Positions 28,916 through 54,633 of a stretch of DNA of 64,000 bases are shown one piece after another. A program made the position numbers and the translations under genes. Location: positions 992,001-1,056,000 of the forward strand of contig NW_027191406.1 in assembly GCF_041146345.1 (NCBI RefSeq), in the 5' to 3' direction. The stretch is from Neodothiora populina (taxonomy: Eukaryota). How positions within the stretch are numbered: position 1 is the first letter of the stretch; every line of letters begins with the position of its first letter. The notes beneath the pieces are model-generated. The model searched no databases. It saw nothing but the letters and a program-made list of their open reading frames with translations, and was not told the DNA's origin.

Positions 28916-31900
28916 CTAATCACTATTCAACCACTCCGGCTCAGCATCTTCGTCTTCAGGATCATGACTCAACAACGAGCCTTTGTCGCTTTCTGCTCCT
29001 TTGTCTTGTCCTTCTCCGTCAATGTCGCCAGCTTTGTCGTCGTCGTCGTCGTCGTCGTCGTTATTGTTGTTATTGTCATCAGCAGCAGCAATATGCCTCT
29101 GTGGTACATCACCACCATTCTCAGACGAAACAGTCTCGAGGGTTTTCTTGTTGCGTGATGCTTCGCCGTCTCCTTCTTCTTCTGCGTCGCGTATGAATCC
29201 TCCGCCTCCGGAATCACTCATGCTCACATCTTCTCGAGTCCCAGTGTCATCCTCGACGTCGACGTCGTCCTCTGGAATGAAGCCCCCTCCTCCGCCGCTC
29301 ATCTTCACGTCCTCATCAAGTCCGGCTTTATTTTCTTCGTCGTTCTCGAGAATGAATCCGCCGCCTCCATCATCGTTGGGGATGAACCCACCGCCTCCGT
29401 CGTCGATGACATCGTCGTGTACGTCCGGAGTGGGGTCTACGACGAAGCCGCCACGAGTATCAGCTTCTGCGGCATGGTTGCTAGTGCTTCCATGCGTCGC
29501 TTGTGCAGAGGAGGGGTCATGGGAGTGAAAGAACCCCCCATCACCTACACTAGCGCTATCGTCGTCTACGCTGTCGCTCGCGAGATCAGATAGTGGTGAT
29601 GAGCTTGTCATGGCGGATGGGATGACGGCATCACGGGCTAGACTTTCATGCTGCGTGTCGTGGTCGGGTCCATCTTGTATTGCTGGGGGTTCGTCGTTTT
29701 CGGCGCTGGACTCCTCGGCGAGTTTGGCTTGGGATCTGGTGACTCTTGTGCTTCGTCTTGTGGCTTGTGTTGGTGTTGGTGTTGGTGTTGCTTTTGTCTT
29801 TGGTTTATTTCGTGGGGGTTTTGCTGGTTTGGGATCCGGAGCATGCGCTCTGCCTTGTTGTCGACGGACTGGAGGTGGACGGATCGGCTCAGGGACGAAG
29901 TCGTCTTCGCTGTCGTTATTGTTGATCTCTTCTGCTTCGCTTTCGTCTTTGAGGGTGATGTTCCGTTGACGACGCAGTCTGGGCGCTGGCTCATTTACTT
30001 GCTCGCCTTCGTCTTCGTCTTCGCCGTCGTCTTGGTACGTTGGGTGTTTGTCTGCTTCGTCATCGTACATTTCTGCGTCGGCTTCCTCTTGCGCTCGAGC
30101 AAGTAGACTCCTAGGCTGAGCAGCGCCGCCGAATCGGCTTGCGGTTGGAGCGGTCTCTTCAGCGGCATCAGGAAAAAATCCGCCGGCTCCCATTGCTTCC
30201 TCCTGCTTTTCCTCCACTTCATCGAGCTGTTTCCTCACGGTTTCAATCTTCCTACTGCTAGGCTTCGGGGCGCTGTCGTTGTCGTACATGCCTAGTCTGG
30301 CGCCGATCCTGAGACCTGTGAGAAACCTACGCCAGAGACGTAGAGACTCAATCGTCCTCTTGGCGTCTTCTTCCGCCTGAGCGGCATTTTGGAATCCTTC
30401 GATAGTGGCTCTCATGGACTCTTCATACTCGCTTGCGACTACGACACCGGCTTTCACGGCTTCGCCTATCCGACCTTTAAAAGTGAAGCCAGTGACCGCG
30501 TCTGCAAAGTCTATACCTAATACCTTGGCTGCTCGGGCTGCTAGTGCATGTCTGATGTGTACGGCTCCTGGAGGTACCATGGACGGAACATAGACGTCGA
30601 GATTTCCGAAACCATTTTTGGGGATGCGGCCATCGACAACTCGTGGAGGAATGTAAAGAGATGTCTGCGAGTAGGCGTACAGAGCTGTCGTTGGGTTTTC
30701 TTCGTCTAGTTCCTCTTGAGCTGCTCGTACACCTCGTCTAGCAGGGACATGTTTGAGGGCTTGTTCGCCAGGCTGCAAGACATTGTCAGCACAATTAACT
30801 TCATGCATATAAGTATGGGAAGTTTAAACCTCAATCTCACGTCCGACTCGATACCATTTATCTGCACTCCGTACCAATTGCACATCACTTCGTCGATATA
30901 CACTTTCCAGATTGCTACTTGAGCTTTTGCCAGTATTTATCTTGCCGACTTCACGCTTCGGGAATATGACTTCGTGTCGCTTTAGGTGTCGTTCCAGAGC
31001 ATAGTAAGGGTGGCCCTTGAAATCTTGTACGTTGTTGGGTAAACCCTCGGCGGCTTCTTTCGTTGCCAATTCCGCATCCTCGACTTGGTCGCGATCTGTA
31101 TGTTTGCGACGGCGGAATGGCTTGAGAGCCTTCCGCCACCACTTGTCCCCGTTTTCGGTCGACTCGATGCGGGACTTCCTAGTCTTTGCATTGAACGCTT
31201 TGGCGTACCGCCGTGTCACATCCCTCGCGCATCCATTACTCTCAAAGGCAAGCACATAACTCATAGAGTTCTGCTCATAAGATGCGGGCGGTTCCAGCTT
31301 TGAAGGCTTATTGATGACACCCGTCACTGTCGCATCAATAGGTACCCATCGCTGATATGCAGGATTGAATGCTTCGACCCAGAAAATGGGATAATCCAGC
31401 TTGCGGATGGAGCTAGGTTTCTTCTTAGGTTTGGCGGGTAAGTTGGGAAAAGGTTGGCCTCCTCCGGGCATAGCCATCATCGGCTGGCCGATCCTCCGCC
31501 TCCTACCCCTCGGTGTGCTGCTTGTGTCTGAAGCAGACCCTGCGGCGGATCCTTCTTCGGCGCTGGTAGTTCCGTCTGCGTAAGTGGTTGGTTTTGACCT
31601 GAGCGGCGTGCCGGACTTGACTCCAGCAGTGCTGAAAGGTAGAGCTTGAAGAGAGCACACCAACCGAGCTTCCACACCGACGCTGCGAAGTAGCGCACAG
31701 AAAAGCTGGTTGCCAAGGTCTTGCGATCCTTTCAGCGTTGACGCTCGTTTGATAAAAGTATCTTTGTCTATGGATGGGACTTCGTCTACTATTGCAGCGA
31801 TTTGCTGGTCGTGGAGTTAGCATGACGATGGGTTTTCTGACATTCTGGGTCGTACTTTTCTGATTGTGTCTGGGTCATCTGCCCATTGCGGTCTTCGCAT

Positions 31901-32727
31901 GCCGTTCTCCGTCACTCTGAATCTAGACTCCCATATCTCTACAGCGATCTTAAGTCCATTGATAAAACTTTCAGATCTACTATACTGGATTAGATCTTCC
32001 CTCGGGTGCATCAAGCCAACAACCTTGAGAGGCAAAACACCACGCAGACGTGACTGAGGTCATTAGCTATTGAGAGAAACATACTAGATGTGGGGACTTG
32101 GCTTACATGCACTTCATCTGAGTTGCACCACGCATTCCGTACGTGGACATGAAAGATTAGAAATAACAGATGCGATTCATGCACTGCCAGACGATGCAAC
32201 TTTTCGGCAGTAGTCACTGGCTTGCGCTTCGCTGCAACTTTCTTAGGGGTAGTTTTAGGTCCGACCTCAACTGCAATGTCCGATATGTCGTTATCGGCGT
32301 CTTTAGGTGCGACGGATGGTGATTCTGTCACTTGTTCTTGATCGAACCCAATTTCCTCCCAATCAATGTCGTCGTCGTCAGAGCCAGAATCGAAGACTGT
32401 TTGCTGTGGGAGTGACTCGAGTTCATTCTCGCTAAAATCTCCGGTCACAGATGGTGCTTTGCCACGGCTCTCCTGAGCCTGACGTTTTGCGGCAATAGGT
32501 GCAGGCTCATCACTGTCCAGTCGTCTTCGCTTGGCTGATCTCGCTGCATCTATGTGTGGTTCCGGCGGCGTTTCAGCCTCTGAGAGCATTTCCCTGAACA
32601 CATCTGGCACGCCATTCTGTCGCCTCGCCGCTGCAGCTGCTTCACTGCGTGTGGATGAATTTGCGATAGCAGCAAGGCGATCCTCGGCTCTGATCTGCGC
32701 TTTTGACTTTCCTTTCGATGCGACCAT
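28916..32727 (-). CDS. RAD4: Nucleotide excision repair damage sensor Rad4/XPC
   Basis: QLFCALLRSVGVEARLVCSLQ, YPIFWVEAF, ARDVTRRYA, FKGHPYYALERHL, PKNGFGNLDVYVPSMVPPG, ADAVTGFTF. Introns 32054-32106, 31805-31855 and 30773-30829 all keep frame. Confidence 0.95.
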
Positions 32728-33175
32728 ATCTGCTAATCAAGATGTCTCGATTTTGTCGCGAAAAGCTATGTTATCCATACTTGTGACCAGCACCTTCGTC
32801 GTAGGATATGTCACCAACTGAACATTATTAGGAACGTGCCATGCAAAAAGAGATCAATGCCAGGCTCAGAGAACTGCAAGTGATTACTGTTTCCAGATAG
32901 TTGGTATACCAGTCTGATCCCACGTGAGCCGGTGGCCGGTTTGGGGGCATGACGTAGCGCCAAGTGACTGCGATGGGGAAAGCGCGTCCTTGTCGCGACA
33001 GGCGCGTCGTCCTTAAGTCAGTCTTGGCATTAATGGAACAGGCAACTACGACACATTGACGAAACATCAATCACTTTGACGGTGGTGTCTACTCGGATCG
33101 TGGTGTGTTAAATTCAGGTCCCAGTAGGAGAAATTCCGCATCTCTACTAAGACAAAGAGCAAATGGAGTTCCAGC

Positions 33176-35827
33176 ATGGCTCCAGCAACAAAGAAGGTGG
33201 CAATGGATGATGATGTGGTTTATAGTTCTGGCACGACATTCCGTCAAAGGAAGTTCCCAGATCGTAAGACGAAAGTGAAGCAGCCGAGACGATCCTTACC
33301 TGCATCAAGTAAGCCAACGCTGGCAAAGCAGTCGACTCTCACTCAAAGCTGGTCTTTTGAAGGGAGCATATCTGACGAACAGGATGAGGTTGAGGAGATT
33401 GAAGACGTGGAAGATGGGGATTACAAGGCGGAAGAACCAATGAGAAAGAGACGGCGAACATGTTCCAAGCAGCAAATAAAGAGTACGATGAGTGTGAAGA
33501 GGCAAAATACCATGACTCAAATGGGGTATATTAAGCCGATGGGAAGCAGCCACGAGGGCCAGGAACAGGAAGACCAGACGACAGACGAGGAAGACAATAC
33601 TGCTGAGAGTGACGGACAAGCAACAGTGGATGAAAACGAGATTGAGCGAGTGCCTGAGTCGATAGCTTCCCAAGACACTCTTTCCCCAACACGCCCTGTC
33701 CAGGCTCGTTATCAGGAACGGCAGGGTCCTAGTCCAGAGCTGTCGTTTTCATTGCCTCAGCCTCGAACGCCGCAGAAGAACTTTCCTTCGGAAATCCCTT
33801 CGTCAAACACGCCACAGAGCGCTATTTTGTTCTCCGCCATGAGCCGGCGTTCTCGAAGATCTCCGGTCAATTCCCCCTTGAAAGCCCGCAGTATGGATAT
33901 ATCACCACCACGCCAAGCCGCCGCGATGAGTCCCGTACACGAGACACCGATCAAGGAAGCCATCCCCTTCTTCCCTTGGGCGGTGCGGAAGACCCCGCTG
34001 TTTCGTGTTCCCGAGATGCCTAGTAGAAGGATGCCTAAGCTCAAGCATCGGACTACCATTCCTGATTCTGATGACATGCCTGTGCTGGAGACTCAACACC
34101 AACCATCTACTGCTGTGAATGAGCCAGGTCGGAGACTCGTACGAGTGCTGTCGACTATCCAAGACAATCAGTTTCAAGCCTCAGCCGAGACACTGGCAGA
34201 TGACGTGTCTGCAGCACGGGCTCGAGAAGACGAGTATGTGAGCGGTGACACTTACCAAGCGACTTTGGAGTATAACGGTCCCTACTATGACACGGTCGCC
34301 AGCGCCTTGGACCGTGACGCTGCAAGATGTGACCAGACTCAGAGGTTGGAATTCTTCCGTCGTGCTCGACGTCCCAATGTCGTTCTGGACACCCAGGAGG
34401 GCTCTGCTGAGGACCTCTTGTTGGGCAGGTCTCGTCAACGGCAAAGAATGCCGGCTTTGTCACAAGCAGTAAACCCTCAAGCTGGCGCAAACTCGGCCGC
34501 TGATGATCAGTCTGTCAAGTCCGAGTCATTGCCTACCACGCCAGAGAACCCTGAGAGGCAGCACCACCGATCTCGTTTTCATGATGTCAACGTCGTTGAT
34601 CTCACCGCCGACTCGTTCGATCCCTTGATACCGACAACATCAGACTCCCCTACGCCAAGGGCAGATACTCAGCAACCACCAGACATGGCTCACTTATTGT
34701 CCTCACCGGCAGTCGAGAAGAACACTCGCATGACTTCTTCCCCTCCTCCGGCTTTCGACCGAACGAACGCAATGATAGACAAGAACGTGGAGTACCTGAC
34801 GTTGAACGATGTCCAAGTGAAGCAGACCGCGACTTCTGGATCCCTTCCACCACCGTCGACGCAGCGCCAGCGAAATGATCATTTCCGTGCACGCGAGGAT
34901 GCTTCGCATCTCAGCCAAGTGTCTACGATAGGGTTCCCAACCCAAGCCTGGAGTTCGCAGAAGCAAAACATGCGGATCAAGCAAGAATATGACGACTACT
35001 CTTTCGCAGAATCTCAAATACTGCACAGGGGCGAGGAGGAAATGGATCTGGACCCAGATATCGATAACATCGTCTCTTCCGAAGCAGTCCCACCACACCA
35101 CCAGCCTCAGGGAGCAGTGGAACATATCGACCTCAGCGACCAAATCGAACCCCCAGAGACAGAAGACGATGATTACGTCGATATCGATGAGGTTAATCGC
35201 CGCCATCATATAGTCAAGGGAGAAGCCCCATTGCCCAGCTCTCCTCTGCCCATCGCACCAGGCCACACATGGACAGAATACGACGATGTCCGTAACGAGG
35301 ACATGTCATCAGATCTGCCAGCTCACTTGAGTCCTCCACCATCGACCTCGTCTGAACCGATGCAAGCGGAGTCTCCAGAGTCTCACACCAGCCCCGCAAC
35401 GCACGTCCTCGCAGCACAGGCGCATGTTCCAGACATAAATCAAGAGACGACGCCACGCGCTCGTGGAGCTAAACTCAAAGCCGAAGAAAAGACAATCTCA
35501 CAAGCACCAGCAGCACGCGGCCTAAGTGAAAAAGCACTGGGAAAACGACCGCTGTACACGATCTCCTCGTCGGAATCTGACTCGGAAGACGAAGAGCTAT
35601 ATCTGCTCGCAGACGAGGAAGGTGAAGAAGGACCCTATGACACCGAATTCCCAGACGAGAGGCCTCGCTTCGACGAGCAACACTCGTGGCACTTCAGACC
35701 CGCGAATGAAATCGTTCCAGACACACAGTATAGCTTTGCGATTCCGCCGGTTCCGCCTTCTTCCGAGGATGATGGGCATCATTATCGTTCCGCTCGGATC
35801 ATGCAGCAGAGGCAGCAGGGAGGATGA
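33176..35827 (+). CDS. Uncharacterised 883-aa disordered, probably nuclear protein, S/TQ-rich
   Basis: Long intronless ATG ORF; NLS-like RKRRR; QSTLTQ and QNTMTQ motifs; divergent from RAD4. Confidence 0.75.
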   Translation: MAPATKKVAMDDDVVYSSGTTFRQRKFPDRKTKVKQPRRSLPASSKPTLAKQSTLTQSWSFEGSISDEQDEVEEIEDVEDGDYKAEEPMRKRRRTCSKQQIKSTMSVKRQNTMTQMGYIKPMGSSHEGQEQEDQTTDEEDNTAESDGQATVDENEIERVPESIASQDTLSPTRPVQARYQERQGPSPELSFSLPQPRTPQKNFPSEIPSSNTPQSAILFSAMSRRSRRSPVNSPLKARSMDISPPRQAAAMSPVHETPIKEAIPFFPWAVRKTPLFRVPEMPSRRMPKLKHRTTIPDSDDMPVLETQHQPSTAVNEPGRRLVRVLSTIQDNQFQASAETLADDVSAARAREDEYVSGDTYQATLEYNGPYYDTVASALDRDAARCDQTQRLEFFRRARRPNVVLDTQEGSAEDLLLGRSRQRQRMPALSQAVNPQAGANSAADDQSVKSESLPTTPENPERQHHRSRFHDVNVVDLTADSFDPLIPTTSDSPTPRADTQQPPDMAHLLSSPAVEKNTRMTSSPPPAFDRTNAMIDKNVEYLTLNDVQVKQTATSGSLPPPSTQRQRNDHFRAREDASHLSQVSTIGFPTQAWSSQKQNMRIKQEYDDYSFAESQILHRGEEEMDLDPDIDNIVSSEAVPPHHQPQGAVEHIDLSDQIEPPETEDDDYVDIDEVNRRHHIVKGEAPLPSSPLPIAPGHTWTEYDDVRNEDMSSDLPAHLSPPPSTSSEPMQAESPESHTSPATHVLAAQAHVPDINQETTPRARGAKLKAEEKTISQAPAARGLSEKALGKRPLYTISSSESDSEDEELYLLADEEGEEGPYDTEFPDERPRFDEQHSWHFRPANEIVPDTQYSFAIPPVPPSSEDDGHHYRSARIMQQRQQGG

Positions 35828-50805: not shown

Positions 50806-53308
50806 CTAGTATGGCCACTTCCAGCTGACGTAGTCATCGGGGTCCTCGCCGGTTTCGTATCTGTGTGTGGAAAGTCAGCACATGTCTCATCAGGTTTTGG
50901 AAATTTAGATTGGGCGAAACTTACGCATGACTGGCGGAAGCAGTCTTTCTGTCCGCAAAATGCTCACGAGCAGAGGCACCCTTGTTGCCCAAGACGCCCT
51001 TCAAGCTATCAATGGCGAGGATGGCAAGACTGTACCTGTCGGTCTCGTTGCGGATGGCGAGCTCGAGCGGGGTATCGATGTTACCCTTCTCCTTGTAGCC
51101 GCGCACACGCATGAGGTTCTGGCCCTTGCGCTTGTAGGTCAAGCGGTGGATCAACCAGGGGTAACTGTGGAAGTTGAAGACGACGGGCTTGTTGTCGGTG
51201 AAAATTGCTGCGTACTCGTCGTCACGGAGGCCGTGAGGGTGATAGCCGTTTGGCTGGAGCTTGAACAGATCGACGACGTTGACGAAGCGGATCTTGAGAT
51301 CTGGGAGATGCTCACGGAGCAGAGCGGTGGCGGCGAGGGACTCCTGGGTGCTGGTGTCGCCGCAGCATGCCATGACTACGTCGGGCTCCTGACCGGCGTC
51401 GTTTGAAGCCCACTCCCAGATGCCGAGACCCTTACTGCAATGAGCGATGGCCTCTTCCGTGTTCAAGAACTGGAGGTGATTTTGCTTGTCGGCGACGATC
51501 ACGTTGACATAGTTGACGGAGCGGAAGCAGTGGTCCATGCAGCTCAATAGACAATTGGCATCGGGAGGCAGGTAGATGCGAGTAACTTCGGGGGATTTGT
51601 TACAGATGACATCCAAGAAGCCGGGATCTTGGTGAGTGAAACCGTTGTGATCTTGTCTCCAGACAGTGGATGTGAGCAGAATGTTGAGCGAGGCAACCTT
51701 TTCTCTCCACGAGACCTCTGCACACTTCTCGAGCCACTTGCAGTGCTGGTTAACCATGGAGTCGATGATGTGAATGAATGGCTCGTAACTGTTGAGAAGA
51801 CCATGGCGTCCACTCAGAGTGTAGCCCTCCAGCCATCCCTCGCAGGTGTGCTCACTGAGAATTTCCATGACTCTTCCTGTGGTTGCCAATTCGCCACCGT
51901 CACTATCGTAGTTGAGCAGCTCTCCCATCCATTGCTTTTTGGATACCTCGTATACAGCATCAAGCTTGTTGGACTGAGTCTCGTCAGGACCGAAGAGACG
52001 GAAAGTCTCCATGTTGTTGCGGACCACTTCAGCTAAGAACTTGGCGAAGATGTTCATGCTGGGGGCTGATGAGACACCCGCTTTACGTAGATCGAAGCCG
52101 AATTTTCTGAAGTCGGGCATTCTCAGAGGTCGATACAGTACGCCTCCGTTGGCGACAGGGTTGGCGCTCATGCGGCGCTTACCCTCGGGTGCAATGGCCC
52201 TCAATGCTGGGATCAATTTGCCATCCTTGAACAACTCTTCGGGCTTGTAACTTCTCATCCACTTCTCGAGGAGGCCTAGTTGCTTCTCGTCCTTCAAGAC
52301 TTGAGTCAATGGGATTTGATGGGCGCGCCAGTAGCCCTCGAGCTTGTGTCCATCTACTTCTTTCGGGGCAGTCCAACCCTTGGGACTGCGAAGGACGATC
52401 ATCGGCCACATCGGTCGAGTCGCCTTACCCGAGTCTCGAGCTTCCTTCTGGTACTTCTTGATCTTGGTCACGCAAGTCTCCATGGTAGCAGCCATGGCCT
52501 GGTGCATTGTGGGCAAGTCACTACCCTCAACAAAGTGAGGCTCCCAGCCATAACCCCAGAAGAGCGCACGGAGTTCTTCATGGCTAATTCTGGCAAGGAC
52601 GGTGGGGTTGTTGATCTTGTAACCATTGAGGTGGAGCACGGGCAAAACGGCACCATCCTGAATGGGATTGAGGAATTTGGTGCTGTGCCAGGAAGTGGCA
52701 AGCGGTCCGGTCTCACTCTCGCCATCTCCAACCATAGTCAAGGCGATGAGCTCTGGGTTATCGAAGACGGCACCGAATGCATGAGAGATAGAATAACCGA
52801 GCTCACCTCCCTCGTGTATACTGCCGGGTGTTTCGGGGGTAGCATGGGAGCCAATGCCGCCAGGGAATGAGAATTGCTTGAAGAACTTCTGCAAGCCTTC
52901 TACAGTTTCTGATTTGTCCGGGTAAACCTCAGAGTAAACACCCTCGAGGTATGAGTTGGAGATGACGGCAGGAGCACCGTGTCCGGGACCAGAGACGAAG
53001 AAAGCATCAAGGTCATACTTCTTGATGAGTCGATTCATATGAATCCATGTGAAGGATTGTCCTGCATCCGAACCCCAATGTCCCAGTAGTCGAGGCTTGA
53101 TGTGCTCGACCTTAAGTGGTTCTTCTAATAACGGGTTGTTCTTCAGATAGAGCATACCCAGACAAAGGTACATGCTAGCATTGAAGTATCTGTTGATTAG
53201 ATCTAGCTCTTCCTTGGAAAGAGGTTGTTCCTTTATGGTGGACCTTGCCTCTCCCCATGGAGAGAGGTCTCCGACCTCGAGGTCTTTCTCTGCAACTCCA
53301 GCCATCAT
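50806..53308 (-). CDS. xfp: Xylulose-5-phosphate/fructose-6-phosphate phosphoketolase
   Basis: LLGHWG, GPGHG, EGGELGY, GDGESETG (TPP-binding), QDHNGFTHQDPG. Intron 50861-50924, then YETGEDPDDYVSWKWPY*. Confidence 0.97.
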
Positions 53309-54633
53309 GACAATGCTGAGGTTGGATTAGTATAGCTATGGGTGTGTGCTAGGAGGGAAGCTGTCCTGGCAGGGAACGATGCAGCTCTCACTCTTTTAAA
53401 GAGCTCAACGCTCCAGCCAGCAACGGGACGACCGGCCTACGCATTTCAAATAAACGTTAATGGATAGCAAGTACCCACCAAAGTGGTGGAACACACGAAG
53501 GGGTGCTACATAATGATGTCATTCACGCCATTAGGAGATTGAATAGTTCCGTCCTCCGACATTAATTGTCTGTGCCATGTCCGGCTCGCTCGGAAGTATA
53601 GAGTATTTACAGTCACTTCGCCTGTCATCTCTTCACGGGCTAAGAGGTATCAAAAGCTGTAAGGTTCATCGCCTCAGCATGATTGTAATTCGATGCAGCA
53701 GCTTCGCAGGTTGCAGGACATGATCACCTTGTTGCGCAGCGATCAAGGTAAGCTGCAGGATCACAAAGCTTATGCTTCAGAGCTTGGGCCATGTCCCTTG
53801 AAGTAAGGTAAGGTAGGTGTGCAACCCCGCGGTCAGACAAGAGCTGCCCCTCCTTCTCCCGAGTTGACCGAAGCAATGAAGGATGCCTTACGTACGAGTA
53901 CTTACCTTATGATACAGCAACCACGTGTCCCTTAGGACGAGCTTGCGTCCTCTACCATCTAAGCGGATGTTTTGGCGACGTAACAGGTGGATAATTCGGC
54001 CTCGGCCGATTGCTGTTGCCTTTCCTATGCGCACCTAGTGCCAGTATGATAACGCCTCGGGCCCTGCATGAACTAATCCGCTCACACCACCTCAACGACC
54101 TTGATTTTCCTGATCTCCTCACGCACTGTATGCTACCATGTATGCGCTTGTATACCTAGGCTCGTTCGGCATCTGTCCTCGCATCCGACTTGCTGGTTCA
54201 GGGATGTGCACATGATCGACGTTGGCAGCAGTTGTTGCCGCATACCTTACCTTGCTTCGCACCCGTATAACCCTTTCGCAACGTTTGAAGTTTATACAGT
54301 GCTTCTATGACTACTCTAGATCTTGAATTCTCTCGACCACTAACATGACCTTCTTCTGATGTGACTACTTCCATTGGGGTCGGCAGCTGCATCTCAATGG
54401 AAAAGAAAATTAGGTTATCTCACGCTGACCAAGTCCTCTAGGCCCTCGCCTATCAGAGCTTGATGATGCTACAACACTTGAAGAAAGATTTGTATCGTTG
54501 TACAGCCAAGAGCATGCATGAGGGGCATCCAATGATACTCAAGGATGTCTTCTTGACGACGATGAGCTTCAAAATGAAGCCTCGACAGCTTCACTGTAGC
54601 TCTCATTACGCAGTTCTGTAATACTCTTGCATC

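Follow-up and report, generated by a model that had tools for sequence, protein, structure and literature searches.

In the textbook nucleotide excision repair (NER) pathway, the 5′ nuclease arrives late and is brought by XPA/Rad14. For the human proteins, published work describes how this contact is made: XPA binds the central domain of ERCC1 through residues 72-GGGFILEEEEEEE-84 (PMC2034474); the interaction depends on TGGGFI and is aided by the Glu run, Gly72–74 form a U-turn in a V-shaped groove, and the F75A substitution abolishes binding (PMC3488251). The same review states that the ERCC1-binding motif of XPA was not found in other mammalian proteins (PMC3488251). For yeast, a 2026 study reports that Rad1-Rad10 recruitment has diverged from the human mode: Rad14 contacts Rad1, yet Rad14 fragments from residue 183 fail to bind, and therefore something N-terminal is also needed, in a role left unexplained (PMC13578500). 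These Rad14 findings leave room for extra or alternative nuclease contacts, with no direct bearing on Rad4. Here we consider a 64,000-nucleotide stretch of the Neodothiora populina genome (the window; positions 992,001 to 1,056,000 of contig NW_027191406.1, assembly GCF_041146345.1), in which a minus-strand gene of the Rad4/XPC damage-sensor family (28916..32727) encodes a long C-terminal tail with an array of XPA-like Gly-Gly-Phe (GGF) motifs. An earlier note on this DNA had pointed to the array and remarked that XPC/Rad4 was not described as using such a motif; we likewise found no description of the motif in Rad4 in the literature searched.

All seven GGF-hydrophobic units listed in that note are present, in one open minus-strand frame that is the last exon of the Rad4/XPC gene. 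Copy 1 (GAGGFFPDA, core AGGFFPD; 30164-30190, last-exon residues 195-203) is the positionally conserved copy, and it is followed on the same strand by copy 2 (GDGGFFHSH; 29519-29545), copy 3 (TRGGFVVDP; 29432-29458), copy 4 (GGGGFIPND; 29372-29398), copy 5 (GGGGFILEN(DEE), GGGGFILENDEE; 29342-29368), which is the copy most like XPA, copy 6 (GGGGFIPED, within GGGGGFIPEDD; 29267-29293) and copy 7 (GGGGFIRDA; 29183-29209). Four of the seven have at least GGGF, and the remaining three have Ala, Asp or Arg ahead of GGF. The 448-residue tail thus has 7 matches to the core, GG[FYW][ILVMF], where 20,000 composition-preserving shuffles yield a mean of 0.018 (maximum 2; none of the 20,000 reached 7), and chance is excluded as the source of the array. 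Elsewhere the core is sparse: other open reading frames (ORFs) of the window hold 3 in 34,594 residues, and ORFs of unrelated fungal loci hold 14 in 128,333. These 162,927 residues contain no example of the extended form, GGF-hydrophobic-P-[DE]. As the seven copies differ in their Gly, Ile and Pro codons, and as Tandem Repeats Finder reported no repeat over them, the copies are not recent DNA duplicates and the peptide has been maintained.

The tail that carries the array (28919..30262, minus strand; last-exon residues 171-618) is acidic and, by prediction, mostly disordered. It holds 67 Asp and 48 Glu in its 448 residues, and a net charge of -0.163 per residue with a mean hydropathy of 0.365 places it on the disordered side of the charge-hydropathy boundary. 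Ahead of it lies the predicted centrin/Rad33-binding helix (the LRLWRRFLTGLRI region; 30293..30352, minus strand, last-exon residues ~141-160), which aligns with the centrin-binding helices of yeast Rad4 and human XPC and is nearly invariant across 64 aligned sequences. In the AlphaFold2 (AF2) model built from this 64-sequence alignment, a helix at last-exon residues 114-159, with a predicted local distance difference test score (pLDDT) of ~90, spans the centrin/Rad33-binding region, and short helices follow in the tail at residues 173-195, 210-213 and 223-237 (pLDDT 53-90). Copy 1 comes directly after the confident helix at 173-195, in surroundings with pLDDT ~69. The pLDDT falls below 50 for most of residues 257-593, the region of copies 2-7, and the GGF motifs of these six copies are accordingly modeled as sitting in a disordered segment. 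Between the array and the conserved C-terminus there is also a perfect (GAC)n run encoding poly-Asp (29036-29061, minus strand), with poly-Asn before it (DDNNNNNDDDDDDDD).

Conservation in orthologues, which the earlier note had set as a check on its proposal, is strong. The orthologue set comprises the best 120 of 696 matches, and all 120 proteins carry the core motif, in 1–9 copies each: 3 proteins have one copy, 12 have two, 20 have three, 24 have four, 23 have five, 17 have six, 11 have seven, 8 have eight and 2 have nine. At least one GGG[FYW]-hydrophobic copy is found in 116 of them. The consensus reads acidic-x-(G/A)-G-G-F-(L/V/I/F/M)-P-(D/E)-acidic. Specifically, across 559 instances position -1 is Gly in 63% and Ala in 23%, the second position after Phe (+2) is Pro in 70%, and the third (+3) is Asp in 45% and Glu in 41% (together 86%); positions +4 to +6 are mostly Asp or Glu and both flanks are acidic. 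While the L/V/I/F/M choice at +1 was set by the search pattern, positions -1, +2 and +3 and the flanks were not fixed by it. The two halves of the motif are moreover coupled, since GG precedes 342 of the 376 tail occurrences of F-hydrophobic-P-[DE] (91%) and F follows in 583 of 694 cases of GG with a non-Gly residue after it.

The motif is also specific to the tail. The 559 instances lie in 34,963 tail residues; the other parts of these Rad4 proteins, 58,541 residues in all, have none, and neither do 47,258 residues of Rad10. Expressed as rates, the core occurs about once per 10,000 residues in the ~163,000 background residues versus once per 63 in tails (i.e., a ~150-fold enrichment). Within the tails, copy 1 holds its position ~35 residues past the centrin helix, across a linker that is itself poorly conserved, and AGGFFPD is the first copy in 54 of the 120 orthologues; later copies vary in number and place, with a spacing of 10-17 residues in many orthologues. 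Searches with tail sequence alone came back blank—no match at E up to 0.001 for tail residues 405-540 (phmmer against 1.84 billion representatives), none at E up to 10 for a 127-residue tail piece against the PDB, and no usable match in the ESM Atlas—because of low complexity rather than absence.

The earlier note had placed the motif in “these fungi,” a limit that proves too narrow. In PDB searches with both a sequence and a profile (the latter built from 64 Pezizomycotina sequences, with an alignment that runs through the centrin helix), GGGFLP at residues 694-699 of Saccharomyces cerevisiae Rad4 is placed under copy 1, at the top of the posterior-probability scale (7k04_A, 7m2u_A). The yeast protein shares both the motif of copy 1 and its position, although S. 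cerevisiae Rad4 has a single copy within its aligned tail (to ~residue 735), unlike the array of the window. As the yeast copy stands at the copy 1 position, the motif is older than Pezizomycotina, and by alignment the first-copy position is kept from Saccharomyces to Pezizomycotina. In the cryo-EM paper on yeast TFIIH-Rad4-Rad23-Rad33, as far as its excerpt goes, the C-terminal part of Rad4 (C-Rad4) is modeled for 648-664 only and the GGGFLP motif is not discussed (PMC8184850). Judged on sequence comparison, Rad4 tails across the ascomycetes carry a real short linear motif, both conserved and multivalent.

The most specific explanation of the array is that the tail motifs dock on Rad10 as XPA does on ERCC1. 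We favor this reading tentatively, at somewhat short of an even chance. Support comes from the likeness to XPA, the match at positions that the search left free, the coupling of GG with F, the specificity for the tail, an intact receptor and the sharing of one complex by sensor and nuclease. Copy 5 has seven consecutive residues, GGGFILE, in common with human XPA 72-GGGFILEEEEEEE-84 (PMC2034474). More generally, copy 5 and the fungal consensus share with the XPA element (TGGGFI plus the Glu run, residues 71-84) a Gly-Gly-Gly-Phe-aliphatic core, acidic residues downstream and a place in a disordered segment of an NER protein. They differ from it in that XPA has one copy and fungal Rad4 has 1–9, in that the first glycine is often Ala in fungi, and in that the fungal carrier is the damage sensor and not the scaffold protein, with Rad10 as its putative partner.

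The receptor was compared in fungal Rad10 genes gathered with the degenerate pattern YHxLHP[DE]YI on metagenome contigs and then through 120 mostly Dothideomycete homologues. One Dothideomycete Rad10 (P0121) aligns with human ERCC1 without gaps (E 1.5e-56) and is identical to it at 12 of 14 XPA-contacting residues (R106, Q107, G109, N110, L139, F140, L141, S142, Y145, H149, Y152 and R156), the two changes being R144K and N147R; the 14 are those named in the literature as perturbed by or contacting XPA. Across 43 fungal Rad10 sequences these positions show little or no variation. By this comparison an XPA-type receptor pocket exists in these fungi, which is necessary, and not sufficient, for docking on Rad10. 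PDB entries 9pcp and 9pd3 contain XPC and ERCC1 chains together, and therefore one human complex can accommodate both sensor and nuclease. As an aside on gene structure, the ascomycete-like genes among the metagenome Rad10 loci (L081-L196) carry the whole central domain in one exon, and in many other loci of that series an intron splits the domain directly before the SL[KR]YH block.

If the motifs do dock on Rad10, the small residues ahead of Phe would turn tightly within the groove, whose aromatic pocket the Phe would fill, and the acidic flanks would meet the basic residues around it. The long flexible tail could then hold one or several Rad1-Rad10 nucleases near the lesion-bound sensor, and recruitment through the tail would add to, or partly replace, recruitment mediated by Rad14. 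On this basis ascomycete Rad4 would itself bear Rad10-binding motifs of the XPA type (one in S. cerevisiae, up to nine in Pezizomycotina), and repair would start with Rad1-Rad10 already tethered multivalently to the tail, alongside the Rad14 route or in place of it, unlike the sequential human scheme. We regard this wider scheme as possible and a degree more doubtful than the docking itself; the “rewiring” of NER put forward in the earlier note is unsupported.

Several observations weigh against docking on Rad10. The +2 position is Pro in 70% of copies where XPA has Leu, and three of the seven window copies have two glycines only. None of the 43 fungal Rad10 sequences compared comes from the window's own genome, and 16 of these rows were chosen by a pattern that covers nine groove residues, so that the invariance of the groove is partly by construction; the conserved groove may, besides, simply serve Rad14. 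The orthologue query included the tail, and the 576 matches beyond the best 120 were left out. Finally, in human XPC the region past the centrin helix is known to contact TFIIH, not ERCC1 (PMC13394385; PMC8184850).

This last point leads to the main rival, and a serious one, namely that the motifs anchor TFIIH. They would then be homologues or analogues of the XPC segments that lie on XPB (Ssl2), p52 (Tfb2) and p8 (Tfb5), and would provide a multivalent tether between TFIIH and lesion-bound Rad4. In models of human complexes, the XPB/p52/p34/p8 body of TFIIH carries XPC 889-916 and 930-940, and a C-terminal XPC segment remains on XPB RecA2 after XPA joins (PMC13394385). XPC that lacks its C-terminal 125 residues is impaired in TFIIH binding (cited in PMC8184850), and the C-terminal domain of p52 is said to mediate XPC contacts (PMC12618060). 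The XPC segments resemble the fungal array in belonging to the same family, in lying downstream of the centrin-binding helix—copy 1 follows it by ~35 residues—and in falling within a region needed for TFIIH binding. In a phmmer alignment to an XPC deletion construct (8ebt_H), extended from the BHD3 match, HLFP of XPC is even placed under GFFP of copy 1. However, a search with residues 150-215 alone (E up to 10) recovers neither an XPC nor a Rad4 chain, and the HLFP extension is not significant by itself; against full-length XPC, the profile alignment runs no further than 902/903, short of 930-940. No Gly-Gly stands ahead of HLFP in the aligned construct, a pair that accompanies the fungal motif 91% of the time, and with a poorly conserved linker between the centrin helix and copy 1, homology of two successive segments is not evident. 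In these searches the segments show no independent sequence similarity to the motifs, and XPC has no array as far as its aligned parts show. As the HLFP/GFFP match is weak, we rank anchoring to TFIIH second, behind docking on Rad10, and consider it quite unlikely.

A further TFIIH contact offers a useful comparison. The strings of XPC/Rad4 and Rad2 that bind the PH domain of p62/Tfb1 resemble the GGF motif in being short and acidic, in having an aromatic residue and in lying in disordered stretches of excision repair proteins, and the acidic string of XPC binds the p62 PH domain (PMC13394385). The window Rad4 appears to have a string of this type at its N-terminus: the acidic string GSDDDDIDWEEIGFDQ (32338..32385, minus strand), where the orthologue consensus is ESDxSDxEWEDV, resembles, we infer, the p62-binding string of XPC. 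Such a string (DDDDIDWEEIGF; consensus EWEDV) has a Trp with an aliphatic residue three positions on, and no Gly-Gly; the GGF motif has neither the Trp nor the aliphatic so placed. At the extreme C-terminus, an acidic tryptophan motif (GSLLSHDPEDEDAEPEWL; 28928..28981, minus strand, last-exon residues 598-615) could be a second Tfb1 PH-type site. Most of its positions are at least 90% conserved in the 64 aligned sequences, and it is more conserved than any of copies 2-7.

Another possibility is that the motifs dock on some other partner (e.g., Rad23/proteasome, the Rad7-Rad16 ligase, RPA or a transport receptor), with the XPA likeness convergent or coincidental. A Gly-Gly-Phe turn with Pro and an acidic residue could suit many shallow aromatic pockets, and the Pro present in 70% of copies is foreign to the XPA motif. 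Against this stands the fact that, in the literature searched, the only documented GGGF-binding domain sits in an NER protein that acts at the same lesion; we also know of no motif class that matches the GGF motif. We therefore take another partner to be unlikely, though by no means far-fetched. Three candidate assignments were set aside: the Rev1-interacting FF motif, as Pro follows FF here; the PCNA, clathrin and SHP boxes, as the spacing is unfit; and the SUMO-interaction motif, as there is no run of three aliphatic residues.

The motifs might instead be generic aromatic stickers in a disordered acidic tail, serving self-association, condensate formation or autoinhibition by DNA mimicry, and would then have no one structured receptor. 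The spacing of 10-17 residues in many orthologues, the variation in copy number from 1 to 9 and a tail that is highly acidic and predicted to be disordered would all suit such a role. Stickers, however, seldom keep a fixed seven-residue context, and here G/A at -1, Pro at +2 and D/E at +3 are kept over 559 instances, with one copy holding its position from Saccharomyces to Pezizomycotina; we judge the sticker reading improbable. Barely credible is the notion that the tail is not protein at all (i.e., spliced out or misannotated, with the motifs meaningless), for 448 codons stay open past the last folded element, in frame with BHD3, the motif peptide is conserved while its codons vary, the extreme C-terminus is at least 90% conserved at most positions, and deposited orthologous proteins include their tails.

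The earlier note had itself named removal of the tail by splicing as a concern, and this check is settled in part; like that on conservation, it does not refute the proposal. In favor of a translated tail, the last exon, as predicted, is a single uninterrupted run of 618 codons, continuous with BHD2/BHD3, and annotated orthologous proteins carry the tail. The gene model, of four exons and ~1216 residues, combines ORFs, Pfam domains, tblastn of orthologues P0002 and P0007 and splice sites. Its exons 1-4 lie on the minus strand at 32727-32107, 32053-31856, 31804-30830 and 30772-28919, followed by a stop codon (28916-28918); the splice sites read GTAAGC...CAG, GTACGA...CAG and GTTTAA...CAG, and the joined frame has no internal stop. 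A sequencing run (X1, probably DNA) gave two short identical contigs, at 29223-29424 and 32569-32755, which contain no joints and are uninformative on splicing or expression.

Exon 3 encodes a transglutaminase-like domain (PF03835, E 3.2e-40) and BHD_1 (PF10403, E 1.2e-21), and exon 4 encodes BHD_2 (PF10404, E 7.5e-09) and BHD_3 (PF10405, E 1.1e-28); the C-terminal part of BHD2 with BHD3 occupies 30407..30772 (minus strand; last-exon residues 1-122), and AF2 gives pLDDT 83-97 over residues 71-160. With a transglutaminase-like domain followed by BHD1, BHD2 and BHD3, the predicted product is a member of the Rad4/XPC damage-sensor family. PDB searches match it to yeast Rad4 and human XPC, and among its relatives Rad4 of Dothideomycetes (e.g., Aureobasidium) ranks first, ahead of Rad4 from Eurotiomycetes and Lecanoromycetes, an order that points to a filamentous ascomycete or black-yeast-like fungus. 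The third intron (30773-30829, minus strand) is 57 nt long, a multiple of three, with the unusual donor GTTTAA and in-frame stops; were it retained, the protein would stop ahead of the remaining BHD2, BHD3 and the tail.

The neighbors of Rad4, a 5′-nucleotidase-like gene downstream and a divergent, domain-less ORF upstream, have no evident link to repair. The upstream frame (33128-35824, plus strand) is open for 899 codons, is rich in Ser, Pro and acidic residues, matches no Pfam domain and is separated from Rad4 by a gap of ~400 bp. Farther along the window, an intron-less phosphoketolase gene (50924-53326, minus strand; XFP_N, XFP, XFP_C) shares 55-66% identity with cyanobacterial, methanotroph and acidobacterial enzymes, unusually near to bacterial sequences for a fungal gene.

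The Rad4 array clearly illustrates how a multivalent short linear motif can turn over in copy number. If the partner proves to be TFIIH or another protein, a central repair protein would still have in the array a docking element that is highly conserved and so far undescribed. If docking on Rad10 is true, an XPA-like array on the damage sensor would constitute a second route to the nuclease, one that is directly testable, and easily so through the single copy in yeast.

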